In this document: in pieces, positions 3,001 to 63,399 of the stretch
Layout of the letters: every line of letters starts with the position of its first letter
Position numbering within the stretch: position 1 is the first letter of the stretch
Assembly (NCBI RefSeq): GCF_001447785.1
Contig: NW_015172015.1
Span: 433,418 to 497,417, forward strand
DNA: 64,000 bases
Reading direction: 5' to 3'
From: Gekko japonicus
Taxonomy: Eukaryota
The notes under the pieces: generated by a model
Database searches by the model: none
Told to the model about the DNA's origin: nothing
Seen by the model: only the letters and a program-made list of their open reading frames with translations
Translations under genes and position numbers: made by a program

Positions 3001-6000
3001 ATAGATTAGTGAAGCTTGTTGTTTGCAAAGGCTTGTTTCAAGTATCATATTGCAGTGTAGCTTGCCTTTTCTCCCCCTTTTCCTCCCATAAAAGTGGGCC
3101 TAAGAGTTGAGCTGTGGTTTGAATTTAAAATGAAAGATTATGCCATAATAACTCTCAAATTTCTTGGCATTCAAGGGAGATATTGCATTACAGTGCATTT
3201 TTATGTTATTCCTGGCTATGCAGGTTGAGCTGCATGTCATAAGAGTATGCTCTAGATTTCACTGTTGTATCTGGGTGCTCAAGGGAAATATTGCATAACC
3301 ACGTTTCTAGACCCCTTTGGGGGATCAAGCTCTAATTTTAACATGGAATGTTCAAAATGCACACACAAGGTCTTTCTAGATTTCCATCTTCAAGGCAGAT
3401 TTTGTACTATCCTTCTCCTTTTGAAAATGGATGCACAGGCTGAGCTGGTAGTTGAACTTGAAACAGAACTGTCTTGTATGCATGTGTCAAATTTCACTCC
3501 AATATCTCAATATTTAAGGGAGATTTATTCATTTTATTTATTTAAAATCCTTGTATTTCTCCTTTCTGGTAAGGCTGAAGACAGCGATCATCAAGAATTA
3601 AAATACACACAGATATGTTTTGGGTTTTTTAAAGTATATAATTCTCTAAATAAATAAACTCAATCTTTTGAACTTAATTTTTTAATTTTTGAAATAACTA
3701 ACACTAAACAACCATATACAAATACAATAATCTTTAGTAGTTGAATATGTTTGCTATCAATCATGAAAACTGACATCATCTGCCGAATTTGTACCAAATG
3801 TCCTTTGGAACAACAAAAGTATACAGGCTCTTCTAAAAGTGAATAGGGTAGAGGTTTTGACACACAGCCCCTGGTATGGCTGTTCCAGCAGCTGAAATCA
3901 CATGATTCCTAACAGAGGTCATTTGGGCAGTTTGCAGTGATTTCAAGTCAGATCTAAGAGGAAGCACAGGTTATAGGCCTCATCCTGTGAAGGGCTTTGA
4001 AGGTAATAACCAGCTTTTTAAATTGAACTCTGCAGCAAATCAGAAGTCAGTACACTGGTTTCAGCACAGATGTAATATGGTCATGTAACCTTGCCCCTGA
4101 CCTAGAAATTTTGGCTTCTGTAGGGAAAATTAACCTGCATCAGCTCTTACCAGGCACAGGAAACCAGACTTAGCATTTAAATGCAATTCTGTTTAGTGTA
4201 CATGTGTTCCTAAAATACAGCCATTATGAAGGATGTCTCATTTCTAAAGCCCAACACTAAGACTGTCACCAAACTTTCTCTGGTGGCTCAAGGATGGGAA
4301 AGGTGGTCCCTCTTCTGTAACACAAGGATGTCCCATAATGTAATTTAAGCAAGGCTTCAAATGTGCCTTTCTTTATCTTCCTGTCACAAACGCCCATGAT
4401 GCTCCTGTTTGTTTGAGAGTGGTTCAAGTATTGTGGGTTTGGGCTGTGTTTTTCCTCTTCGCAATTTATAGCAACAGCAATTGGACCACCTGAAGGAAAA
4501 GCTGCGTCTGATGGCACAGTCCCGCGATGAGGCGCAGAATTACTGCCTGCAGCAGAAACAAGCTGTGGCTGAGGCACTTGGAAAGGAGAGCCAGCTGAGC
4601 GTGCAACTGGAGGGACTCAAGAGACGGATGGAAGAGCTTCAGCAGGTGAGTGGAGAGAGTGGCTTGAAGGGGGGGGTGTATATGGGAAATGTGCATATTC
4701 CACAGCCAGTAAACTCAGCTTGGATGACAGCTTTTCAAATGGATACAATGTCTGCTCATTGCAGTAGTCTAGAAAAAAGTAGTCTAGGCTGCAGCATTTT
4801 GCACTAGCTGTAGCTTCTGGATTTGGGTCAAGGGCAGCCCCATGTAGAGAGCATTACAGTAGTCCAATCTCAAGGTGACCATCGCATGGATCAATGTCAC
4901 CAAGTCATTGCATTTGAGGAAGAGAACCAACTGCCTAATCAGCTGAGGTGCTAAAAGGCTGATTTGGCAGTGGCTGCTACCTGGGCCTCCATTGTTAGTG
5001 AGGCATCCAGGAGCACTCCCAAGCTCCTGACCTTCAGTGCTGGCACCAATGGCGCCCCATCGAAGGTCAGAAGAGGGATCCCTACCCTTGGGCCACCCTG
5101 GCTCAGGCACAGGACCTCCACCTTCGTTGGATTCAATTTCAGTTGGTTCAGTCTGAGCCAACCAGCTACAGCTTGCAACGCCCGGTCGAGATCTTCCGGT
5201 GTAGAGTCAGACTGGCCGCCCAACAACAGATAGAACTGGGTGTCATCTGCATACTGGTGACTTCCCAGCCCATGCCGCCGGGCAATCTGGGCAAGGGGGC
5301 ACATGTAGATGTTAAATAACATTGGGGACAGCACCACCCCTTGGGGCACTCCACAAATCAGTGGGTGCCTTTGGGATAGCTGCTCCCCTAGCGCCACCCT
5401 TTGTCCCCGACCCTGAAGGAAGGAAGCCAGCCATTGCAAGGCAGGCCCCTGGACTCCAGTGTCGGCGAGGCGGTGGTTCAGTAACTGATGGTCAACCATG
5501 TTGAACGCCGCTGACAGGTCCAACAGCAACATCACTGCCAATCCGCCCCGATCCAGATGCCTCTAGAGGTCATCCGTGAGGGCAACCAGTGCCGTCTCCG
5601 TCCTGTGGCCTGAGTGGAAACCGGACTGGAAAAGATCTAGAATGGAAGTGTCATCCAAAAAGCTCTGTAGCTGAATTGCCACAATTATTTTGCCCAAATA
5701 GGGCAGATTGGAGACCAGCTGGTAATTAGCCAATTTGGCCAGATCCAGAGNNNNNNNNNNNNNNNNNNNNNNNNNNNNNNNNNNNNNNNNNNNNNNNNNN
5801 NNNNNNNNNNNNNNNNNNNNNNNNNNNNNNNNNNNNNNNNNNNNNNNNNNNNNNNNNNNNNNNNNNNNNNNNNNNNNNNNNNNNNNNNNNNNNNNNNNNN
5901 NNNNNNNNNNNNNNNNNNNNNNNNNNNNNNNNNNNNNNNNNNNNNNNNNNNNNNNNNNNNNNNNNNNNNNNNNNNNNNNNNNNNNNNNNNNNNNNNNNNN

Positions 6001-9000
6001 NNNNNNNNNNNNNNNNNNNNNNNNNNNNNNNNNNNNNNNNNNNNNNNNNNNNNNNNNNNNNNNNNNNNNNNNNNNNNNNNNNNNNNNNNNNNNNNNNNNN
6101 NNNNNNNNNNNNNNNNNNNNNNNNNNNNNNNNNNNNNNNNNNNNNNNNNNNNNNNNNNNNNNNNNNNNNNNNNNNNNNNNNNNNNNNNNNNNNNNNNNNN
6201 NNNNNNNNNNNNNNNNNNNNNNNNNNNNNNNNNNNNNNNNNNNNNNNNNNNNNNNNNNNNNNNNNNNNNNNNNNNNNNNNNNNNNNNNNNNNNNNNNNNN
6301 NNNNNNNNNNNNNNNNNNNNNNNNNNNNNNNNNNNNNNNNNNNNNNNNNNNNNNNNNNNNNNNNNNNNNNNNNNNNNNNNNNNNNNNNNNNNNNNNNNNN
6401 NNNNNNNNNNNNNNNNNNNNNNNNNNNNNNNNNNNNNNNNNNNNNNNNNNNNNNNNNNNNNNNNNNNNNNNNNNNNNNNNNNNNNNNNNNNNNNNNNNNN
6501 NNNNNNNNNNNNNNNNNNNNNNNNNNNNNNNNNNNNNNNNNNNNNGCCGGTTCTTTTTTCATCAAAAAACCAAAGATAAAGTACAAGCAAAGACAAGTCT
6601 TACCTTACAGTAATTATGTTTTGTTGTCATAATTATTACTTTGTTTGGTTTTTAATATGTTTTTGCTGTTTTGCTGTTTTATTATCTGCAGTATGTGATT
6701 ATTTTTAAAAGGGAATCTTTTTTGTCTTAAATTTTGTACAATAAAATTTGTCCTATATTCATTAAAAAATCCAATAAAAAGGTGTGCAATCCTTTTATTA
6801 TTATTTATTTATTATTATTATTTATTATTCGCATTTTTATCCTGCCCTCCCCGGAGGCTCAGGGAGGCTCTGGGTCACATCTAACTATGGGGCTGGCTAT
6901 AGGGATGGTGGAGGCCAGATAATAATAATATTTAATGAAGTCCTAGTTTTACATTCAAAACGCTAGCTTATCAGTAGGCTGACATTAAATTGTTCAGTAA
7001 TTTGTCAGTTTTTTGTCAGGTTTTTTGTCAGGTTTTTTGGAATTTTGGTCAGTAAAATCAGCATTTTTGACCCTCTGGCTAGTTTCCACCCCTGCTCTCC
7101 CTCTCATCCCTTTTATTCTCACAAGAGCTCTGAAATGTAGGTTAGCCTGAGAGACAGTAATTGATTCAAGCAAAGATTTGAAACTAGTTATCCCCTGTCT
7201 GGGTCCCGCATTCTTAACTGCTACATCGTAACAGCAGCAGTTGGGACAGGGTTCCAGAATTTGTGACATACAATATATGCCCAATTATATATTGCCTCTA
7301 TAATACTAATGTGCACATGGACATGTACCAGTATTATGGCTACAGAAATAGTTTCTGTTCATCAGCTTCCCAATATAATGGTCTGCCGTACTTCTATTTC
7401 ACTGAGCTGTACGTAGCACATACTAACAAAGCTGAAGGAAGTACATCAGCAATTAGGAGATTCCTTCCTTGGTGACAGGGTAGTGTCTATGACAGGTGTT
7501 GTAGCCTTGCCCTGGAGCACTGCGTGTCCAGACTGTAGGCTTCTCTGACTGCTTTGCCCCCTGTACTTGGATGGCAGGAGCTGAGCAGCAAGGAACAGGA
7601 GAAAGTGGCTGAGGTCAACAAGGTGCGAGTGGAGCTGCAGGAGCAGATTGGACACCTGGAAGCTGAGAGGACAGCGCAGGAAGGCCTGCGAGAGAAAATT
7701 TCAGCCCTGGAGCGGCAACTGAAAGGTACTTGGTTAGGAAGGGGATACTTCTGCTTCTCAGAGAGGATAGGAAATAGAATGTCATCATCTAACAGGACCT
7801 TGGAGCCCATAATGATCTGCTGCTCACTTTTCCAAGTGTAGTTATTTGTTTACTTTAGAGCCTGCCTTTCTCACTGAGACTCACGGTGTGCATGCACACG
7901 AAAGCTTATACCGAGAATTAAACTTTGTTGGTTGTAAAGGTGCCACTGGACTCAAACTTGGTGGAGTACACAGTCTAAGGCAACGCAGTCACTTGGCATA
8001 AGACATCCAACAAACAATGCAATAGGACTAGGATTTCAAAAATTAGAAACAGTGCAATGTGTCATAATGCAAAAACTGGAATAAACAAAAGTAGATAAAA
8101 TGCATTAAGAGTAAGGTAATACGTACAGTGAACAGAGGAATATATTAAAATCCTTTCCTTTATAAAAGCACCGTCCATACCACAGCATTATTCCTTTTAT
8201 AGAAATACCCTCCTGAACAATTCTGTTATAGAGTTTGTGGAATTACAGGAGTGGGGGGGGGGGGCTTCCTGAGCAATTTGGCCAGGCCATTCCACAATGT
8301 GGGGAAAGCATGTGTATGGGCAGCTGTCAGAATGGCACCTTCAGAAGGCTTTGCTCAGATGAGTGAAGCTGGCATTGCATGTCAGGAGAGGCGGTCCAGT
8401 TTCTGTCTCCCAACCAGGCTCAGACCAAAGGAGGCAGGGATGGCTGGATACTGGTCTCAACTTAGGAAGAAATGAGAGGGCTGCTTGGAGGACCCCATGT
8501 GGCTGTGTGTGCCCTAGACCAAGATGAGCACTTAGAGAAAAGAAGAACAGAAGTATTGGTGCATGGGGGGGGGGAAGGATATTGTTTTATTCTAGATATG
8601 GGAAAGTGTATTGCTGGAATGGGAATGGTGGTACTGGTAAGAACCTCTGCAGTTCACCATATGTGGACAAATGTTGCATCCAGCCTACAGTGCTGGGAAG
8701 AGGCCTTGACTTCTGTCTGCCCATTACCCAATGTAGGAATCCCACAAGCAGCAGCATGAATCCTGACTTTTCCACTACACCATTCTAGCTTTAGGCTGTG
8801 GTATCATCTCTGCAAATCAACCCTGTTTTCTGCACAAAGTAAAGCCATATGAATGAGTGGTGGTCTGTTACTGCTCCGTAGAACTTATTTTGTTTCAAGA
8901 GCATTTTTCCTGTCTGAACCAGAAAGCTTGAGTCTGCTGTTTTATTTCTCCTCATATAGTGCTGTCCAGTAATCACCGGGAGGCGCTGTTGGACAAAGAC

Positions 9001-14704: not shown

Positions 14705-23482
<8,778 letters not shown>

Positions 23483-24419: not shown

Positions 24420-29656
<5,237 letters not shown>

Positions 29657-30849
29657 CCCGGCGGGCGGACAGCCTCGTTCAAGACAAGACAAGACTTCGC
29701 CTTCGGGGGCAGAAATAACACCGCGGTGGTAAAGGAGGCCAGCCGCCACCGCTCCTCCGGAAGAAACGCCCCATCTGGCCCCTCTCCAAATGGCCGCTTA
29801 GCGTATCTCGCAGACCAAGGAACCGCCCTGTGTTGAGGGACTTCCCTTCTGTCTTAACGCCACCGTCCCCCGAAATGCATTTGGGTCCTGCTATCGATCT
29901 CGTACCCAAACAGCCTTTCTCATTTCCCCACCTCCTCTGAATCCTGTGGCCATTGGACACCCCCCCCCCCCCCCATATGGGGACTAATCTCCGAATAAAG
30001 CCCTTATATCGCGGCAAGAGTAAATCGCGTCAATTATTTTTGCAGCCTAGGTTTGTCAGCTCCAGCTCGTTAAATTCCTGGAGATTTTTGGGATGACGCC
30101 TGTGGAGGGTAGAGTTTGGTGAGAGGAGAGAGCTGAGCGAGGACGTGATATACCTCACAGAGCCCATCCTCCGAAGCTGCTTTGCCGGGAAGGGCGGGGT
30201 ATAAATCAAATAAATACTTTCCTTTGGGGAAACTCAGCTGGTAGCCTGGACAGATCCGTTGTAATTCCTGGAGAACTAAAGGCCCAACCTCGAAGCTGGT
30301 AATTCTATGCAGCTTGGATATCTCTATAGTCGAGTGCAATGCTCTGGGTGTCAGAATATTGTTTCCAGACACTCCCTCTACCCCACAGAATTAGCATGTT
30401 TAATCAAAATCAGATCACATCACAGAGCCAGCATGGTGTAGTAATTCGAGTGTTGGACTAGAATCTGGGACACTCCGGTTCAAATTCCTGCTCTGCCGTG
30501 GAAGCCTGCTGGGTGACTTTGGACCAGACACACAAACTCAGCCTAACCTACCTTACAGGGATGTTGTGAGTATAAAATGGCAGTGAATAATGTAAACCAT
30601 TTTGGGTCCCTATTGGGGAGAAAGGTGGAGTATAAATTAATCACAAGCGATGTCCAGTGCCAGGGATTAAACTAATCTACATTTCTGACCTGTACTGCTT
30701 GTCTGCCCCCCCCCATCTCCCTCTCCCCCCCTTTCACTCCTCAAAGCAGAAGATGGAAGGTACCACTTGGTCTACTTTCTTACAAGTATGCTGTACCAGC
30801 TTGTACAGCTTACTTATTTGGTGGTCCCATATACATAGTTCTCTTAAGA

Positions 30850-30976
30850 ATTCAGGTGAGTAGCCATGTTGGTCTGAAGCAGCAGAACAAAGTTTGCGTC
30901 CAGTGGCACCTTTAAGACCAACAAAGTTTTATTCAAATTGGAAGCTTTTGTGGCCAAAGCACACTTCTTCAGACAA
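30850..30976 (-). mobile_element. Penelope-like terminal-repeat fragment
   Basis: Reverse complement gtctgaagaagtgtgc...aaaagctt...ttgttggtcttaaaggtgccactgga...cagaccaacatggcta. Confidence 0.6.
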
Positions 30977-31228
30977 ATGATTGTATTCCATAATTCTCTT
31001 AACCTACTGTGGCTGGGATGCCCCAGTGTAATAGGGTTTCTTATCTGATTTTGTATTTTTTACTGGCATGCATGATGTTTTGCATGGCTAGAATAGAATA
31101 GGTTGCCTCTTCTACAATGTTCCAGAACTTCCCTGCCCCTATGGCAACACTTGTTACCTACAACAGTTAGTACAAACCTTCCCCTGGTCCATACAGGCCA
31201 GTCTGCAATCCTCAGTCTCTCCCTGTCA

Positions 31229-31919
31229 ATGTTGAGTCGCAAGCAGCTGATGCAGGCAGCAGCACAGCTAGCAGAACAATGTGGCAGATATACAGATGGC
31301 TGCTGCCATGAAGCCTCTTGTGGTGGAAGGCAAGGATCCATTAACCCACGAGGAAAGGTCTCTGAGGCCTATAAATTCCTTCTATAAAAGCGCTGCTGCT
31401 CTTGGTGTCTGCTAAGGCACTCTGTGGAGCAGGGTGTTGGGAAACAGAAACAGCAAGCCCAAGCCTATCTTGAGACCATTAAGAAGGATCTGGAAGCTCA
31501 GTGCTGGGAGAGTCTTAGCCTGTTAGTATACAATGTCCTATTGAAACACTGCAGTGAGACAGATTATGAAAGCAAAGCCTTTTACCTGAAAATGAAAGGC
31601 GACAACTGTTGCTACTTAGCTGAGAGCCTTGCCTTGATGCTAAAGAGACTTTAGTGAAGTCTGCAGAGACAGTCCATGAGGCAGCTCAGGAAATCAGTGA
31701 TTATTGCATGAAACCTACTCATCCCTTGGCTCTACCCTTTACTATGAAGTTGTCAACAACCCTCAACAGGCAACTAGACTAGCAAGGACTGCCTTTGCTA
31801 AAGCCATTGGTGGCCTGGAGAAACTCCGCCTAGAATACTACAAGGAATTCACCGTTATCATGCAGCACCTAAGGGACGACATTATGCAGTTGACCCAACA
31901 ACCACAGCAGGAGGAGTAG
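31229..31919 (+). pseudogene. Intronless, disrupted 14-3-3 protein (gamma/eta-like) pseudogene, probably retro-derived
   Basis: Collinear fragments MLSRKQLMQ..LAEQCGRY / MAAAMK...LTHEER / SEAYK..*KRCCSW...VEQ / KHCSETDYESKAFYLKMKGDNCCYLAE / ETLVKSAETVHEAAQEISDYCMKPTHP / YYEVVNNPQQATRLARTAFAKAI...YKEFTVIMQHLRD cover the whole 14-3-3 fold. In-frame TAA at 31385-31387, several frameshifts, no introns. Confidence 0.9.
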
Positions 31920-32158
31920 CAAGGAAGAGTTTGAAGGCCAACATTGTCCTGAGCCAGCAATTAACCACAGTGAACAGAACCATGGGAGCCAATGATAGGT
32001 AGTTGTGTGACAGATTCCTCGTACTTGCATTCATCCAGGTACCCGATCCATCCTCTAAGCGATTAAGATAGGTGCAGATATCTTCAGTTTCTTAATGCCC
32101 TACTAGAAACAAATGTCTATTCTTCAAGCCCTTTGGCTCCAGCCCGTCAAGGTTCAGA

Positions 32159-32540
32159 TAGGGGTGTCAAACATAAGGCCTGGGGAGCAACCAGTGCAAG
32201 GGAGGGATCAAGAGACTGCTTGGGGGGGGGAGTGGGCAGACCCACTATGATTGTGGCTTCAGCATGGCAGAACAACCTCATCTGCAGCAGTCAAGCAGCA
32301 TAAGAGCATCTGTCCAGTGCTGCACCACTGGCTCCCCAATCCGCCCATATGGGTTTTCCTCGGCACCCCCCTCCCAGACCATGGGGCCTTGCAGTGAGGA
32401 TACAACTCAGTGCTAACCAGCTGCTGTCCTTTATACAGCTTATATGTCCAGTACCAGGCATTATGTTTTATGGCACACATAGCCCGGCAAAGTGACATTT
32501 ATGTCAGATCCGGCCCTCATAACCAATGAGTTCGACCTCT
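32159..32540. mobile_element. Degenerate hAT (Charlie-like) non-autonomous element
   Basis: Left end taggggtgtcaaac; right end ...ccggccc...gagttcgacctctct (degenerate inverted repeat). Confidence 0.5.
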
Positions 32541-35834: not shown

Positions 35835-38800
35835 TCACTTCACTGTTACAGTGGGGCACCATGCAGTGTCGGGATAGAGTAGACAGTGGACAGATCTGAA
35901 TCTGAAAAGAGAAAGGTAAGAAGTCACAGTCACAGGAGTCAAAGCAACTTGGTCTGGAAGAATTACAAATCTGCCACTGCAGGAACACTGGTTATAATCT
36001 GCTAATATATCTAGCAGAAAAATGCCATTTCCTACCCATTGCTTGGAGTTATCATCAGTGGTCAAGCAAGCAGGGCAAGAGATTTCATTTGGAAAGTAAT
36101 AATGCACTCACCGAGTTGGGTCTTGCTGTACATTGAACATTTCCTCCACACTCACAACATTATGTTTGTTCTCAGGACCCCCATAGCTTAAGGTAACCTG
36201 GGGAAAACACACACACAAACATGCTCAGAAACTACACTTGCTGGAGCATAGCAACCAATACAGGAAATCAGTCTTGTGGGGCAGATGATAGATGCTTTGT
36301 AGTCCTTCCAAGATGAGTAGCAGCAGTCATGGGAAAAGAAAGTAACATAATGCTGCAGTTGAGGCGTTCTGCTGACCCAGGAATGGACTGGGACAGCAGA
36401 ACAGCCCTGGAACAAGCTCAACCAAGGAAATCCTGTAGCACTAGCAGCACTGGAGGGATCACATGGCTCAGACCTCCGCAAGCCTCCACCCACTGGCATT
36501 GTTGCCATGGCCTGGGTTACAGCACTACAAGCACCACAGGGACCACTTGGCTCAGCTTGCTCCTGACCACCAGAAGCCCTCAGGATACTGGCCCATTGGG
36601 AACTTTCTTTGTAAATTATATGGCCAACATACCCCCAACCACTCAGGCCCAAATCAGAGATTCTCAAGGAAACAAGTGCCACCCGTATGGATAACAGAAT
36701 GAAGAACACCAGAACAAAACAGGTCAATAAAATTCCAGCCCCTCACTTTCAAGAGGCTGGTCTTACCACAAACTGTACAGATCACATCGTCACAGATTAG
36801 TTAGTGCAAACAGATTAACTTACCCAAATTTCTGATGCAGTGAATTTCTTCATAATTTCTCCATATTTTCTTATCTCCACTAAAGAACTGCATTTAGGGC
36901 TTTGTAGCCATATAAGAAGTCCAGCTTTTAAGAGGCCCCAATGTAATTTTTAGTTCATCACAACAGTTGAAATTGACCTTGTAATTTAAATCCATCAGGC
37001 TGCCCACATCCATGTCTAATTTAATTTAACCATAAACTCTTTTTAATGGAAATCTATGGAGTAGAAACCTTTGGCTGTCCCATTTAGAGTAGCCAAAGTT
37101 TGCTCATACCTGTTTGAACACCGCTTCACCACGTAGCCGCTGCAGGTTTTCCAGGTGTGAGTGGAACAAGGGGCTGTGGTGCAACTTCACTTCCAACAAC
37201 CCTTCAATGATGTAGCCAATTGTGCAGTCATCAGGGAGGCGAATCCTCTCAGCAGTGCTGATGAAGCTCCCCAAGCTGCCACAAGACAGGAATTGGAGAA
37301 TAACATCTCCCTAGGTTCTTAGAACAAAGGAACATTCTCTAAGCTGTACATACCTAGCCCAGGGACTCATTTTGAGGGCAAGACCTCTGCTGATACAGAA
37401 CCCTGCTCCGCCTGTGGCAAACCAGAACTTCACAGTGGTCTAACAAGATAAATAAAGAGCTGTTAGAAAAACTAGGGACAGTTTTAGCTCAGAAGGACAT
37501 GTCAGAGCCTACCCCAGTAATGTAAGTCTTTGAATGTTTAGCCTTTGTAACCCAACAGTCCTATCAGATTTGCCCACATGGTCCAGATTTCTGTTGAAAT
37601 CCAACAAGAGGACCAATTGAACCATTCATGGTCAACTTTTAAGTGTCCTTAGTAGATGATCTGATCTTTAAGATACACAAGGTCATTATAAAGAGACTCT
37701 CATTCAAAACCAATTATATCCTTGTTGCTGGTCTCTACTCCTGACTCTTAATGCAACTTGCAGCTATGCATATTTGCTTAGAAATAATGCCCACCAAGAG
37801 GACTTCCTCTCATGTAAATGGGCATGGGACTGCAGCCATACAAATACACATTATTGCAGGACAGAATAGTCACTGAAGTCACTTTTGCTTGCAAATTTGC
37901 AGAACACCAGAGGATTGGTTTCATGAAATGATCTGTCCCACAAACTTGTTTCCTGTCCCATATTCCATAACTTAATTCGTTTCCCCTTTTGTCAACTTAT
38001 TAAAATAATATTCTAAGATTGTTGCTGTGCTATGTATCTTCAAACTGTGCATAAGCCTCGATGTATGTACTTTCTAAGCAAGACAGACATCTATAACCCC
38101 CCCACACACACACCTAAGTAGTTTGTGAAAGCACATGGTGCCACATGAATCAGAAGAACCTTGGTCCATGATCCTGGCAACAGTTTGCCTGAAGGTTTGC
38201 ATCAGATAAATTCTCTGCTTATTCCCATATCCTATAGCAGAAGTACAATGCAGTGCAGCACCTACGCAGATCTGAAGGACAGAATCTGCACGCTGAGAAA
38301 GGGAATTACTTTCTAAAGGCACCTTTATTATGTGCTTTCCTAGCCCAGAATTGCAATGGGACCTCTCAGGGATTTCTTTGGGCAGCTGTGCCACTAGCTT
38401 GACTATGAGACACATATGGGGAGGGTAGTAATTCTGTACTTTCCTCCTGAAGGGAGCAATACTATTGCATCATTTATGAATGTCATATTTACACTACAGA
38501 GATGTGTCAGTGATGACTTAAAATCAGGTAGCGTCTATTTCCAGCTGAGTCATAGTTAACACAGCACTCCTGTCAATTGCCATCTGTGTATAGTGGTGGA
38601 TGAAATGATGATGTCTGGAAAAGGATGTAACAAGTACTGAGTAGAAGCACTTGCAGAAATCCATTTTGCACCTGATGTTTCAGTGAAGTATTTCCTAGTT
38701 CTGTGCTGTTGTGAGGCAGGGAAACCTGGCTTCAAATTCCAAAGAAGAGGAAGGAACATACAGTAGGAATAGCATGGGAACAATCCAAGAACAATGCATG

Positions 38801-41800
38801 GGAACAATGTAAGAATCTGATCGGTTTGAATTTTGAGAAAGCAACGACCCAAGCAAAGAATATGCTCACTGATCCATCATTCCTGACATGATCTGCTGCT
38901 TCAATGGGATGATCTAGACTTGGTCTCCCAACATAGACATCTTGGCTGTGTGAAAAGGCAGACAGGAGATGCAGGAGATTTCGCAGATTCACATAGTTGT
39001 CATCATCCATGTGACAAAACCACCTGCAAGAAAAGTAAAAATAAAGCACCAAAAAAAGTCACAAGCTCTCTCTGTTAAGCTATCTTGGAAAAGGATCTTT
39101 ACCTCTCAGAATCAATGCAAAGGGCATATGTGGTTATTAGACTGAGAAGAGACAATGGGAGAATCTCTTCTCAACTCAAGAAAATTAAAACACAAGTCAA
39201 TATCCCTTTGTGGCTCAGCCTTTCAGCCAAATTTGGTCTTCTTTTCCTTTATGCTCACCATCAGTGATTAAAGGAGTTCCTGCTTGGTGTAGTGGTTAAG
39301 TGTGCGGACTCTAAACTGGGAGAACTGGGGTTGATTCCCTACTCCTCCACTTGCGGCTGCTGGATGACCCTGAGCAAACCATAGTTCTGACAAGAGGTGT
39401 CCTTGAAAGAGCAGTTCTCTTAGAGCTCTCTCAGCCCCACCTACCTCACAGGGTGTCTGTTGTGGGGAGGGGAAGGGAAAGGAGTTTGTAAGCTGCTCTG
39501 AGACTCCAAGTGAAGGGCAGGGTATAAATCCAATCTCTTCTTCTTCTACTGGCTCATACTGGAGTCAGAGAAGGTAATATTAAGACAAGCACCAACTGGA
39601 ACAGAACAATGTTCAAATCCAGTGTCACCCTTAAGACCAACCAAATTTTATTCTGGGTATAAGTTTCGTGTGCATGCAGAATAAAACTTCCTTGGTCTTA
39701 AAGGTGCCACTGAACTCAAACTTTGTTCTGCTGCCTCAAAGTCAGACCAACACGGCTACTCACCTGAATCTACCAACTGGAGTAGTGACTCTCACTTACT
39801 TTTGCCCAGATTCAAGAAATTTATCATATTCCACAGACATCTTGCAGCAGAGTGCTTGGCGGGTATGAACAGCTGAGCAGTTGGTGTTGATCATGTGATC
39901 CCCTATAATAGAAAGATAGTTTCATTGGGGAGCCTGCATTATTTGCAAGATAATTCAATCATGAACACTTACTAATAATTAAATTATTACATGCAGGTTA
40001 TGTGTCTTTTAATTGTTGCACTCTTTGTGAACATTTATACACAATATTTATATAAAGAAGCAATTTGATTATTACTTAGTAAGTCTTCACGGTTGTATAT
40101 TTTTGTATTTTTGTGACCTCTTGTTCCATGATTCTCTCGTCGCATTCTTCTGATTTGCAAGAAAAACAGCAAATATAGTGGGAAACTCATGTGAAGAAAA
40201 TAAATCGGATATATTCATGCCACCATGCCACCATCTAGCAACTATAAGACCAGGCCATAAGAACTGCAACCTGAAAATAGGGAATATAATTCCATTGCAC
40301 CCAGTACCAAAAGAGAACAGAACTTTATTTGAACATCAGCAAGGTCTTGTCTGAGCCCTGCTAGACTATAACCAGCCACCACCAGCAACCAACAATACAA
40401 GAGAAAAATGAAACTAAAACAATGGCTTTTACCTTAAGGCATCATGTTAAAATAACTATACCATAGAATAAGGTAATCTTAACAAAGTAATAAGTCTGTT
40501 AAAGTTTATGATGCCACAAAACTCCTTTTTGGCCCCATTGGTGGACCTCCTGATGACACCTGGGATTTGGCCACCATGTGACACAGAGTGTTGGACTGGA
40601 TGGGCCATTGGCCTAATCCAGCACAGCTTCTTTTATGCTGTTATGTTCTTTTTGGCTACAACAGACTAACAAAACTACTCCACTGGATTCTGCAACCAAG
40701 TTTAACTCCGCCTCTTATAGTGAATAACAGATTTTTAATATCAGCTTTCCACAAACTGAAAAAAGAAATTCAGGTATTAGCATCAAGGCTTAATGAAGGA
40801 ATGTGGCATAATCTTCCAAAATGAAGAGAAAACATAATTTTATTTACAATGGGGGTGTGTGTGTAAGGATCTGAAGCAGAGATATCTGGAATGGCTGGAT
40901 TGCCCCTCACAGAAAATAAATGCAAAACCATTTATCATGGAAAGGTAGACACGGCATATTTTAATCCAGGCTCCCCCTTGAAAAAAAACAACCTGCTCAA
41001 TACAAAACAAATGGTGTTCAAGCAGATAAAACCTGTTGAAAGATTCACAACTAAGAATATTAAGAACAGCACTGCTAGTTAAAACCAAAGGTTATTCTGG
41101 CAGGCTTCACCTAGACCAGCAGGTGACTGTAGATTTGGAAGTTACCACAGGAATAATTCATTTCAACTAAAGCAATAATACAGGATTTGTACAGCACATG
41201 CATATTAAAGCATTTCATAAAAGAAATCAGGGGTCTTTTGGTGCCGGAGCGCACTGGAGCACTGCTCCGGCAGCCTGCATGGCGGCAAGCCCTGCCCCCA
41301 GGTTCCCCAAGCCCGCACAGAAGCGCTGCGGCTTGGGGGAGGCCCGGAGAGCCCCGCCCCCGGGTCCCCCGAGCCCGCACGGGAGCGCTGCGGCTGGGGG
41401 AGGCCCAGAGAGCCCCGCCCCCGGGTCTCTCGAGCCCGCGCGTGAGCGCTGCAGCTGGAGGAGGCCCGGAGAGCCCTGCCTCCGGATCTCTCGAGCCAGC
41501 GTGGGAGCGCTGCGGCTGGGGGGGATGCCCAGAGAGCCCCGTTGCCGCACCCCGTCACCGCTTTGGGGACCCTATTTGGGAAGAAAGGCAGCATAGAAAT
41601 GTTTAAAATAAAATACAATGTTTAAAAAGTAAGGTAAAGGTTTCCCTTCCTCAAAAGCCAGTTGAATCTGACTCTAGGGGGCAGTGCTCATCTCCATTTC
41701 CAAGCCAGAGAGCCAGTGCTGTCCTAAGACATTTCCGTGGTCATGTGGCCAGCATGACTAAACGCTGAGGCACATGGAATGCTGTTATCTTCCCACCTAA

Positions 41801-44800
41801 TTGGTACCTATTTATCTACCCTCCTTCTTTCCTGCCTTCTTCTCTTCTTCCCTTCTCTCTTTCTTTACCTCCTACTTTCCTTCTCTTTTTCCCTCTTTCC
41901 TTCTCTCTTTGTATCCCCTCTTTCTTTCCTTCTCTTTCTTGCCCTCTTTCCTTCCTTTCCTTCTCTCTACTCTCTCTCTTTCCTTCCCTCTTTCCTCCTT
42001 CTGTGGCCCAACTCTAGTGAGAAGGGGTTTAAAGTTTAAACCCCCTTCTCTCTTTGCTCCCCCCCAAGGCCAGCTGGGGAAAGGAAGGGGAGGCTTTTGA
42101 AGATGCCTCCCCCCCTTTTGCTTCCCCTTCTCACTTCCGGTGATGTCAGGGAGCGTGGCATATGCTAATAGCCTAGTAGCTCATTAGCATACCATATGCT
42201 AATGAACTCCTGCAGCTCTTTTTCTACGAAAAGACCCCTGAAAAAAAGAAATGCCAAGTGACAGAACAAATAGTTAAAACCTCTGGCACCCCATTTAAAG
42301 GCTGCCATGTAGTAGGGCTCGGGAAAGCCCCTGTCTAACACTTTGACTTACTAGTCAGGGCAGATAATAGAAGGGAGAGTAGATAGTTGGTCTGAATCAG
42401 CCTAAGACAGAGCCTTGTGTTTTGAACCCATCTACCTATAAATACCTGCTATACCTGTCAGAAATGTGGGAACACGCTCACCTGCTCTGTGACGCAGTTC
42501 TGGATCCTCCCAGTCTGTAAATATAAAGGTCTGAGGGAGACAAGAAAAATAAACACTTAATTTTCTGGACAATTTCTGAGTAACACTAGTGGATTGGCTC
42601 CTACCCCTTTTTCACTGGCACTAGAGAGAGGAGCAATCTTGCTTGATTTTCCTCCTTGCTACAGCCCCATCCTATGTAGTATCTTGTCCCACACATGCCC
42701 CACAAGACTTGTGGGAAGTCAGCAGGACCCCTCTTTCTTCTTGCACCTTTGAAAAAACACATGGGACCTAACTCAGTATTGCATTCAATCAGAATACCAC
42801 GGAAGAGGATATCCTTGGTTTCCCGCAGTATTTTTTTAAAAAATTGTATGTGTGTATACGTGCTTGTGAGTCAGGAAGTCATGGAGACTTCTGGTGACCC
42901 CTAGTGGGGCTAGGACATTTCAGAGAGGAAGCTTTGATATTACCTGCCTGTGCTTCCTGGCCCTGGTATTCCTTGGAGGTCACCCTTCCAAGTACTTCCC
43001 AGGGTCAGCCCTGCTTAGCTTCCGAGATCTGACAAGATTGGGCTTGCCTGAGCTATCCAGGTCAGGGCAGTTTCCTGTAGTATTAAGAAAAAAGAGTTAG
43101 AAAGAGAGAGGAAGATGGGTTTCTCTCCTATAGTCAGATCTTTTTACTCGGCACTGAGGCCCAGCACACATTATAGAGGCCTTGTGTCCCCCATGGGTTT
43201 TGTTGATCAGATGTGTGCCTGTAGGTCAGTGCCTGGAACTAATTCCCAGGCACTTGGGGACATCAATCAGATTGGGACTGCATGCCTGGGGACAGGGGGT
43301 ATAAGCCTTCCCCCATGTGATATTTTCATAACCTGAAATAGCTCTGGGAAACTGCTGTTTGCCCCATTGGGGAAGCTTGTCTGTAGCCATCAAGGTAAGT
43401 AAGTTTCCCCAGCAGGACAAATAATAGTTTGCCAGGGCCTTTTCAGGTTAAGAAAATGATGAGTGGGCCTGTGTATCCCTAGGAACTAAGCTCTGAAAAT
43501 GGAACTATAGGCACATGTCTGATCAACAGGAGTCACATGGGGGATACAAGGACTTTATAATGCGTAAATTGGCCAAACAGGTCGAGAGTTAAATGTGGTA
43601 TAATACTGTAAAAAATAACAGAAGCTCAACTCATCTCAACCACTGCTCCCTCTAAGCTGTGGAGTCTTGTGAGCAAAAATTCTACTTTGTGAGCTACTGG
43701 CATTAAAGGTGTGAGCAAGCTACTTGGCTACTGCATAAATTAGTTTGCTCTGGAGCCATCCTTCCTGAGCTAGGACAAAAAATATGTGAGCTGGGGGCTA
43801 AAAAGCTGTGAGCTAGCTCACACTAACTCAGCTTAGAGGGAACACTGATCTCAACGCAGAAAATCACCCACCAAGACAAAGGTCAGGGATTTATTTTCTC
43901 AGAACTCTCTTTTTGTTTAACTTCTGTCTTATGTCCCCAGAATCTGCTTTGTATCAGAGAAAACAGTCAAGCTGATGAGCAGTAGGAAACCCTACCAGCA
44001 GCTGGTACCAGTATCTGGTTTGAGAACTAGACAGCCACCAAAGCTCCTGGGTCGACCTTTAAAAGTCTGTCTGAATTCATAAAGTGATGGAAATGGCTGC
44101 CATTTTCCCCATGCCAGCAGGGGGAAGCTTTCTGGCATTGAGGTAAGCCTTCTGGGGTATCTGATCTGGCACTGTGGGAAGCATAATGATCTGTTGGTAT
44201 GATACAGCAAGGCTCATCTTCTGTTCATTTTGGAGAGACTGCAATCCTGTGCATGCTTATCTGGGCAGAAGTCCCATTGAACTCAATGGAACTAACTATA
44301 CATAGGGCTGGATAGTAAGAGCCTTAAAAGGATATTGTAGCTGATAGAAAAATGTAACTGTTGAATAAATTAATATTTTAACTCTCCAGGAAAAGCACTC
44401 TTACCTGCCCCTGAGCCTGGGAAATCCATGTTTGGAAGAGCAAGTTCAACCTTGTTTTATGGTATTTCCGTGTTGTTTTCACAGCAATAAAGATATCCTT
44501 CAATTCCAACTTTTCCTTAGCAGAGATGTTGTCAGGTCCCACATGATTCACCCTATTGTACCATGGATTACTTGGGCTCTCATTCATCTTGCTGTTAGCT
44601 TTCAGGCTGGATCGCCCAGTGTCTATGACATGAGGGGTCCATTCTTGTATTAGTTCCTCTTTCACAAAGGGTACAATGTTGTTAGTTTCATCATTCAAAT
44701 TATCAACTGAATTTGACTCTGCCTGCTGTGACTGGACCTCACTCTTGTTCGAAGCACTGAAAACTGAAGGTGGATGCGGCTGTGGATAACTTCTAGGTCT

Positions 44801-44902
44801 CCAATTAGCCTGGAATTTGGGGATTAATAAGAGGAGGATTGCGCAAAAGATAACAGAGAGCAGGAAGCAGATCTTACTGAACCAAATGCAGGAACAGCTC
44901 AT
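35835..44902 (-). CDS. RFNG: Beta-1,3-N-acetylglucosaminyltransferase radical fringe, complete, 8 coding exons, 402 aa
   Basis: Exons: 44902-44405, 42530-42482, 39902-39800, 39023-38870, 37439-37354, 37275-37110, 36197-36112, 35901-35835 (1209 nt). N-terminal hydrophobic anchor, [38 protein letters not shown] (DxD), [41 protein letters not shown]. Position beside GPS1 identifies RFNG among the fringe genes. Confidence 0.96.
39283..39548 (+). mobile_element. tRNA-derived squamate SINE (Squam3-like)
   Basis: Highly similar to the copy at 48060. Confidence 0.8.
39600..39775. mobile_element. Penelope-derived fold-back element
   Basis: Inverted arms ttaagaccaa..ttttattctg / cagaataaaa..ttggtcttaa. 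Confidence 0.65.
41289..41540. repeat. GC-rich minisatellite, ~61-bp unit x4
   Basis: Units resembling gccccgcccccgggtcccccgagcccgcacgggagcgctgcggctgggggaggcccagaga start near 41289, 41351, 41412 and 41473. Confidence 0.9.
41630..41820 (-). mobile_element. Sauria SINE fragment nested in a hAT element
   Basis: Near-identical to the copy at 16550. Confidence 0.85.
41820..42002. repeat. Low-complexity polypyrimidine (CT-rich) tract
   Basis: About 180 nt almost entirely C/T. Confidence 0.9.
42850..43070 (-). mobile_element. 5S-rRNA-derived SINE
   Basis: Reverse complement gccctgacctggatagctcaggcaagcccaatcttgtcagatctcggaagctaagcaggg... is the same family as the copy at 60468. Confidence 0.75.
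43641..43847. mobile_element. hAT MITE, 207 bp
   Basis: Imperfect terminal inverted repeats CACTGCTCCCTCTAAGCTG / CAGCTTAGAGGGAACACTG; perfect 8-bp target-site duplication ATCTCAAC at 43633-43640 and 43848-43855. Confidence 0.9.
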
Positions 44903-44946
44903 TCTTCAGCCCAAGGGGCCTTTGCCATGTCGTAAGATTGGGACAT
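44899..44946 (-). promoter_or_regulatory. uORF ([15 protein letters not shown]) in the RFNG 5' leader; its stop overlaps the RFNG ATG (ATGA)
   Basis: Read directly on the minus strand: ATG at 44946, second in-frame ATG at 44928, TGA at 44901-44899; main ATG at 44902-44900. A splice acceptor (ttttctcag) ends at 44970. Confidence 0.6.
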
Positions 44947-47150: not shown

Positions 47151-62898
<15,748 letters not shown>

Positions 62899-63399
62899 GT
62901 GAGTGCCTATATCTCTGACTCTTGCTGAAAATTTATGGCTCCAGAACTGACTGCTTGACCTGCCTTTTCTCCATGATGCAGTATGCTGCATTGATAAATA
63001 TACACTGTGCAATATAAAAGTAAAGCCTGCATCACATGCCAAAGAAACCTTGAGGCTTTAGATCTGCTGGAGCATCTCCATAGACTGAAGGATTTCTGAT
63101 TTTGAAGGGTAATTGTCTCACCTTCTCCCTTTTGCTGCTGTCTAAAACATTCCTTCCAAGTCCTGCAGAGACGCTCCAGTGAATTCATCTCGGACTCTTG
63201 AAAATCCACTTGTTGCACAGAAACATAATATATTTGGGAATTGATCAGAAATTTGGGAGTATGGCTCAATTCTTTGCTCTCCATGGGCAAACATGTGTCC
63301 TTGATGAAAAAGACTGCATTTTATCATCTACACTAGGCCCGGCAACTGGCTTCCTACCTGTCTCAGGAGGACCTTGCCACAGTAATTCATTCAACAGTC

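Follow-up and report, generated by a model that had tools for sequence, protein, structure and literature searches.

The window analysed here, the whole 64,000-nucleotide stretch of DNA from the gecko Gekko japonicus, contains at positions 31229-31941 of the forward strand a dead copy, full-length and intronless, of a squamate 14-3-3 gamma-like gene that we call GL. We are highly confident that this remnant, dead and present once in the genome, belongs to a clade of 14-3-3 proteins that survives intact in squamates and whose ligand groove has been rebuilt. The explanation we favor for the whole, and consider likely, is that a retrocopy of YWHAG became, through changes on the squamate stem, a 14-3-3 subunit with poor phospho-binding, and that this gecko lineage has since lost it.

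We aligned the remnant, allowing for frameshifts, with the intact protein of the gecko Euleptes (P0001). The alignment extends from the ATG at 31229 to 31938, and 187 of its 232 codons are the same in both; identity is 81% to this intact gecko protein, compared with about 51% to the YWHAG of the same genome. Pfam family PF00244 matches the remnant in three forward frames (E 3e-12 and 3e-11), and the pieces score 47 and 44 bits against a curated cut-off of 33.2. These scans of the window covered 438 stop-free stretches of at least 55 codons, a length at which short exons are missed. Compared with solved structures, the middle piece scores highest with gamma (62.9 bits), followed by eta (52.7) and zeta (38). 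A preliminary description made from the letters alone had recognized a full-length collinear 14-3-3 remnant with an internal stop at 31385-31387 and several frameshifts. The alignment bears this out, with the stop, a TAA, where it was placed. Altogether the reading frame is broken by one internal TAA, five frameshifts and three in-frame indels. The end point given earlier, 31919, was too early: the ancestral frame ends at about 31941, and the TAG at 31917 lies inside the last, frame-broken stretch. The features of the remnant are as follows.

31229..31941, + strand: pseudogenised intronless GL coding sequence, from the ATG to the ancestral stop position (now CAA), by frameshift-aware alignment to Euleptes P0001
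31256, + strand: in-frame +3, by frameshift-aware alignment
31292..31299 (~31298), + strand: -2 frameshift at about codons 21-23, by alignment; also in run X3 (gap-free contig 31020-31551)
31355..31362 (~31359), + strand: -7 deletion at about codons 44-46, which restores the original frame after the -2, by alignment; in X3 and X2 (in X2 a gap-free record, 31335-31490, whose short side is 24 letters)
31385..31387, + strand: in-frame TAA at codon 55, where intact copies have Q or R; read identically in X2 (study P1) and X3 (study P2)
31394..31396, + strand: Cys codon where gamma has Arg57, the change that defines the family, readable in the remnant by alignment
31526, + strand: in-frame +3, by frameshift-aware alignment
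31624..31626 (~31625), + strand: -2 frameshift that varies within the species label; seen in the window and X3, not in X1, X2, X4 or X11
31726..31740, + strand: -22 deletion in the N178 helix, by alignment; 16 nt of it polymorphic, retained in X3 and X14 and lost in X1 and X2
31896..31920, + strand: in-frame -6 (31896) and last frameshift (~31914-31920) in the acidic tail, by alignment

The remnant stands head-to-head with DCXR, upstream of the end of a fringe gene. Both flanking genes are on the reverse strand. The position agrees with the earlier placement between DCXR and RFNG, the latter name resting on synteny. We take the neighbors to be RAC3, RFNG and GPS1/CSN1, presumably correct names given the Pfam matches and the human gene order.

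19788..23190, + strand: exons of a Ras-family (RAC-type) GTPase, by PF00071 matches
25890..29656, - strand: DCXR exons, with the ATG at 29654-29656; best PDB match L-xylulose reductase, E 2e-22
29250..30500, no strand: CpG island over the DCXR start, a candidate shared promoter, by CpG observed/expected ratio
37107..44905, - strand: exons of the fringe gene, by PF02434 matches
55309..62925, + strand: RPN7/PCI exons (GPS1-type), by Pfam matches

The ATGs of the remnant and DCXR are 1,573 bp apart. The CpG observed/expected ratio is 0.60-0.85 in 500-nt windows starting at 29251-30001, against 0.09-0.23 over the remnant. Very high-copy repeats lie on both sides of the remnant (30850-31015 and 32150-32400), reaching a depth of up to ~1e7 in DNA contigs, and repeat-like pieces also occur at ~30420-30580, in the spacer between the remnant and DCXR. 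Elsewhere in the window, 4954-5562 on the reverse strand holds a reverse-transcriptase fragment, likely of a LINE (PF00078, E 2e-22), which adjoins an N-gap at 5751-6545. None of the listed runs containing the locus is recorded as RNA. A raw RNA run (X21), of which about 3% was read, gave four reads; every one falls in the 5' flank (31020-31210), outside the coding sequence. Two contigs of possible RNA (X3 and X4) are unspliced, have a depth of 2.5-5 and may be DNA. With no joints or loose ends among these data, they weigh neither for nor against expression or promoter sharing.

GL is intact in 17 squamate species in the cluster listings, to which two further sequences can be added. The holders are Euleptes, Sphaerodactylus, three Podarcis, Zootoca, Lacerta, Rhineura, Elgaria, Varanus, Candoia, Python, Lerista, Tiliqua, Hemicordylus and two Anolis, and thus include geckos, skinks, lacertids, anguimorphs, anoles, a boa and a python. 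With an 88-residue open piece of the remnant as query, nine of 38 candidates were GL, all squamate and 74-83% identical; a profile search returned ten GL proteins among 62 matches, adding Anolis. In both searches GL stood apart, at 73-83% identity (the query's own row aside) compared with 44-54% for all other matches. When HMMER was run against all 50%-identity representatives, one GL representative scored 453 bits and the next protein 320. Other high-scoring representatives (P0074, P0094, P0096, P0122, P0132 and others) were considered as GL and rejected, the non-GL proteins compared all being closer to gamma or eta than to GL. The intact relatives carry PF00244, and no NCBIfam model matched GL. 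Among annotated proteins, none of the piece, profile or HMMER searches found GL in a non-squamate. Because orthologue-like proteins are intact in 17 squamate species, we regard the remnant as the relic of a functional, lineage-specific paralog, which is what the preliminary description had proposed when it suggested that the gene might be intact in other reptiles.

The 20 intact GL sequences that we compared, which include two versions of one Anolis carolinensis gene, are 71-99% identical to one another, whereas exon 2 of YWHAG is 100% identical from this gecko to human. They share 120 invariant columns, 30 of which differ from gamma. Squamate entries named 14-3-3 protein gamma-like or gamma-A-like (XP_056704523.1, XP_044275876.1, XP_016846879.2) are intact members of this clade, and their names in RefSeq and UniRef are automated only. 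We found no published description of GL as a family in the open literature, among the titles and abstract beginnings of the matches listed. In the protein searches GL matches were absent from colubroid snakes, agamids, Sceloporus and eublepharid geckos, a pattern of possible repeated losses. Annotated genomes exist for all four of these groups.

What sets GL apart most clearly is its ligand groove, on which the preliminary description was silent although the fixed change of Arg57 to Cys is the main point about the family. We give groove residues in gamma numbering and, unless stated otherwise, counts among the 20 intact sequences. R57C is present in 20 of 20, and in all 22 sequences that cover the site (of 23), within an ungapped stretch. 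By comparison, Arg57 is kept in 161 of 162 canonical cluster matches and in 137 of the 141 distant representatives that could be aligned there (8 of 149 were unaligned). The canonical phosphate cage K50-R57-R132-Y133 is incomplete in GL: R132 is kept in 20/20 and R57 is Cys in 22/22, while position 50 is K in 14, T in 5 and R in 1, and position 133 is Y in 11 and F in 9. Intact gecko and anole proteins (P0001, P0010, P0021, P0223) have Thr at position 50, and since K50T adds to R57C they are without two of the four cage residues. The canonical hydrophobic and backbone face (L177, N178, V181, E185, L225, N229, L232, W233) is likewise altered, with L225 (to H, R, N, C or Q) and L232 (to Q or H) changed in every sequence, V181 present in 3/20 and N229 in 15/20. 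V47E/K, N51L/F and G54Q/R are also universal. On the other side, R132, L177, N178, E185 and W233 are kept throughout, D129 in 23 of 23 and K127 in 19 of 20, and new basic residues appear (D21K, V62R, L225H/R). Across the whole protein, 33 of 121 sites that are invariant in canonical 14-3-3s have the canonical residue in at most one GL sequence.

The functional reading of these changes draws on mutants of other 14-3-3 proteins. According to PMC8988012, R57 and Y133 are needed for phospho-recognition, and N178 and V181 for O-GlcNAc recognition. In fly epsilon, K50E and R57E are reported to attenuate the binding of phosphorylated substrates (bioRxiv 10.64898/2026.01.18.700201). From the groove changes and from such mutants, which carry a different residue (R57E, not R57C), we infer that GL lost the phospho-specific part of the groove while its backbone and sugar portion was largely retained. 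Intact GL is likely to bind phosphorylated clients poorly, and because the phosphate-gripping Arg has become Cys, its job is likely to be unlike that of the seven usual vertebrate forms. The closest laboratory counterparts are engineered gamma proteins, R57E (PDB 6BZD) and K49E/K50E, which are defective in phospho-binding; R57E lacks the same Arg and has been solved with a GlcNAcylated peptide (PDB 6BZD). GL differs from R57E in being natural, in having Cys rather than Glu and in its further groove changes.

Judged by profile and predicted fold GL is a 14-3-3 protein, yet its sequence lacks the canonical phosphate cage. An AF2 model of the intact Varanus protein has a pLDDT of 92.1 and superposes on gamma with TM 0.90-0.92 and an rmsd of 1.2-1.4 A, a fold that is partly imposed because the alignment contained canonical 14-3-3s. 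GL and YWHAG are alike in an all-helical predicted fold, in the two-residue longer loop of the gamma/eta type and in most of their dimer residues. L13, A14, R19, S59, Y85 and E92 of the dimer face are kept in 20/20 GL sequences, with A17C, D21K and K88T as changes. The predicted complex of Varanus GL with frog gamma scored 0.87, against 0.00 for the best control; since 14-3-3 dimers have been solved many times, this score shows likeness to solved dimers, not binding. Runs agreed on at least 96% of contacts, and the partner had a pLDDT of at least 92. For microbes, the score mark used is reached by 51 of 78 solved complexes and by 2 of 108 mismatches; for eukaryotes, the figures are 71 of 105 for solved complexes and 2 of 126 for unrelated pairs. 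GL is predicted to keep both the 14-3-3 fold and the dimer.

A different reading of the groove is that GL is a 14-3-3 of normal mechanism with shifted specificity, gripping phospho-Ser/Thr through R132, K50, K127 and the new basic residues but preferring other motifs, as the 14-3-3s of Trypanosoma do. R132 (20/20), K127 (19/20), K50 (14/20), N178, E185 and W233 are indeed there for it, and L225, often H or R, together with V62R could rebuild a phosphate site. The T. brucei 14-3-3s I and II also offer a natural precedent: according to PMC3006207 they prefer atypical motifs, bind mode 1/2 phosphopeptides weakly and are mostly heterodimeric. Those proteins, of unrelated origin, however keep their groove residues (PMC3006207), unlike GL. 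Moreover R57 is Cys in 22/22, geckos and anoles have Thr for K50, and 9/20 sequences have Phe for Y133, so that the cage is eroding in several lineages. We therefore regard shifted specificity as unlikely, and prefer the reading in which the phospho-specific part of the groove was lost.

To place GL among the vertebrate 14-3-3s, we built a tree of 40 rows, a chosen subset from which near-duplicates, rows without names and one record carrying a contamination flag were left out. In it the remnant groups with the 14 intact GL rows as a single clade (100/100), whose stem measures 0.9 changes per site, and this clade nests inside the gamma group (97/94). Within it the remnant is sister to Euleptes plus Sphaerodactylus (95/87), with a terminal branch of 0.21 compared with 0.024 and 0.062 for the two intact geckos. 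A 22-row tree without the remnant again joined gamma and GL (91/88). In AU tests, GL with eta was rejected (p-AU 0.02), while GL as sister to all gamma (p 0.16) and GL with SFN (p 0.125) were not rejected, nor clearly was GL outside gamma plus eta (p 0.051). Long stems are placed unreliably in trees. GL also has gamma-type states (EKAY, ALNY, CSET..YES), and YWHAG is its nearest paralog both by tree and by identity (53-58%). On the AU results we take gamma (YWHAG) as the likely parent; the tree does not fix a date. Fourfold sites, tried as a further pointer to the parent, discriminate nothing: the remnant differs from gamma at 19 of 33 and from eta at 16 of 30, and gamma from eta at 53 of 81. 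A Hemiscyllium protein named 14-3-3 gamma-like (P0347) groups with eta and with neither gamma nor GL, so that its name is misleading.

The phylogeny proposed in the preliminary description yields a single long-stemmed clade that probably lies within gamma. Its wording gamma/eta-like can be narrowed to gamma, given the middle piece's best score of 62.9 bits and the nesting at 97/94, with the eta half contradicted by the AU test. Fast-evolving describes the stem, at 0.9 changes per site, but not what followed, when 120 columns stayed invariant in 20 sequences. The stem length, these invariant columns and the 30 among them unlike gamma fit a burst of change on the stem with constraint thereafter.

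The remnant is not the gecko's YWHAG orthologue but a separate paralog, the true YWHAG with its intron lying on C4471. In both YWHAG and YWHAH (C10067) codon 29 is followed by a phase-0 intron, with a GT donor and an AG acceptor, and the remnant runs on continuously across the codon 29/30 boundary, as had been noted at the AMK|V position. The gecko YWHAG intron is ~46 kb long. Retroposition, suggested in the preliminary description on this ground, fits the loss of the parental intron. Its usual hallmarks were not found: no A-run follows the gene, no UTR is shared, and blastn of the remnant against the YWHAG locus matches nothing beyond coding exon 2 (70% over 161 nt) and some repeats. Such hallmarks are not expected in the remnant because its synonymous sites are saturated. 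Over 190 codons, remnant and YWHAG differ with pN 0.30 (dN 0.38), a saturated pS of 0.77 and 19 of 33 fourfold sites, and pS between YWHAG and YWHAH is the same, 0.77. An ordinary YWHAG retrocopy in the same genome served as control, with pN 0.13, pS 0.28 and 3 of 34 fourfold sites different; its alignment to YWHAG ends near codon 160.

L035:5135-5620 (G000:C16785 ~443130-443700), + strand: ordinary YWHAG processed pseudogene with part of the 5' UTR and stops at codons 49 and 57

Exon 1 of gecko YWHAG (L029:3732-3818) differs from human gamma by V8L, E18D, A24V and A26T, which is unusual for a gene that hardly varies; in exon 2, gecko and human are 100% identical. Of these changes A24V is old in the gecko lineage, because the C16785 retrocopy shares V24. 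We think retroposition from YWHAG on the squamate stem quite probable, though unproven. A precedent exists in SFN, for which a retroposed origin is likely. Like GL, SFN is an intronless, lineage-specialised vertebrate 14-3-3 (a single open frame in the gecko genome, G000, L001); unlike GL, which is gamma-type and differs from YWHAG in lacking the codon-29 intron in the remnant and in R57C, V47E/K, N51L/F, G54Q/R and the changes at L225 and L232, SFN keeps a K/R/R/Y phosphate cage and sits with zeta-type proteins.

An older origin would make GL a duplicate arisen at the DNA level: situated next to RAC3 and RFNG, it would be a third gamma/eta ohnolog from the genome doublings of vertebrates, and would have lost its intron and persisted in squamates alone. 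The pS of 0.77, as saturated as that between YWHAG and YWHAH, is compatible with such an age, a position outside gamma plus eta is rejected only at the borderline (p 0.051), and RAC and fringe neighbors presumably belong to a three-way paralogon that includes the chromosomes of YWHAG and YWHAH. The gamma-type states, the nesting in gamma and the absence of an intron speak against it. Annotated proteins hold no non-squamate member, the shark gamma-like protein falling with eta, and many independent losses would be needed in addition to the loss of the intron. We consider the ohnolog origin improbable, more so than shifted specificity, and retain retroposition from YWHAG.

In this gecko the gene is dead. 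Searches of the genome (G000) found no intact GL copy elsewhere, and the remnant is single-copy. The TAA is present in runs of two studies (X2 and X3), and the -2 and -7 near the start are in X3. Other breaks vary under the same species label: the -2 at 31624 is in the window and X3 but absent from X1, X2, X4 and X11, and the 16-nt part of the deletion at 31729 is shared by the window, X1 and X2 but not by X3 or by X14 (organism C). These combinations at 31624 and 31729 need recombination, recurrent change or mosaic contigs. Two related organisms have breaks of their own, B a stop at 31409-31411 and C, among the indels listed, +4, -5, -14 and -1. Between the window and organism B, the differences listed, out of 72 across the contig, include 34 in coding sequence, and 33 of these could be mapped; 23 are nonsynonymous and 10 synonymous, giving an omega of 0.6-0.9 that is not distinguishable from neutral (p 0.19-0.70). 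Change after the loss looks neutral, and 12 of 98 GL-invariant sites have changed in the remnant. The remnant is accordingly a unitary pseudogene: a disabled single copy with functional relatives elsewhere and no replacement, its orthology given by the tree and the single-copy state.

Two simpler accounts of the breaks fail. That the remnant is an ordinary YWHAG processed pseudogene, dead on arrival, would suit an intronless, broken sequence not detectably expressed (about 3% of the RNA run read), but it is refuted by the 81% identity to an intact gecko protein compared with ~51% to YWHAG and by intact copies in 17 species; the remnant is also quite unlike the C16785 retrocopy. The preliminary description had opposed to its own proposal an old pseudogene with dN/dS near 1 throughout and no intact copy anywhere; intact copies exist, and dN is 0.38 against a pS saturated at 0.77. 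That the breaks are assembly errors in a gene still intact in this species might be thought from the two frameshifts missing in some runs, but is refuted by the TAA in X2 and X3 from two studies, the -2 and -7 in X3, the breaks in B and C and the lack of an intact copy elsewhere in G000.

The history that we favor would run as follows. YWHAG mRNA would have been reverse-transcribed and inserted 1.6 kb upstream of DCXR, head-to-head with it, where the CpG-island promoter of DCXR may have driven the inserted GL, a use of that promoter that we hold to be a possibility somewhat short of an even chance. A burst on the stem would have rebuilt the GL groove, with purifying selection after. Intact GL would then pair with canonical 14-3-3s in one-handed dimers that damp the binding of clients with two phosphorylated sites, a dampener role that we propose tentatively; alternatively it may bind phospho-independent or O-GlcNAc clients. 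That GL acts in one of these two ways, as a one-handed partner or through phospho-independent or O-GlcNAc clients, strikes us as conceivable but no more probable. The loss of GL in this gecko would have preceded the losses in the two related organisms or have happened in parallel.

Vertebrate 14-3-3 proteins are usually counted as seven near-invariant phospho-readers. In its strongest form, which we put forward as rather less than probable, our proposal is that squamates have an eighth: either a natural phospho-blind reader of O-GlcNAc or unmodified clients or a dominant-negative poison of canonical dimers, with the cage lost and D129, N178, E185 and the dimer face kept, retained from geckos to pythons and lost repeatedly. 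If true, a conserved eighth isoform in which the key phosphate-binding Arg is permanently lost would amount to a pseudo-reader of natural origin. An evolved protein, instead of an engineered mutant, could then be used to test 14-3-3 roles that do not involve phospho-binding, such as chaperone activity and O-GlcNAc reading, and the effect of one-handed heterodimers in cells would become testable. The squamate gamma-like entries should be treated neither as YWHAG orthologues nor as noise, and the dead gecko GL, with breaks still segregating, records a loss specific to its lineage, to which a trait can be linked.
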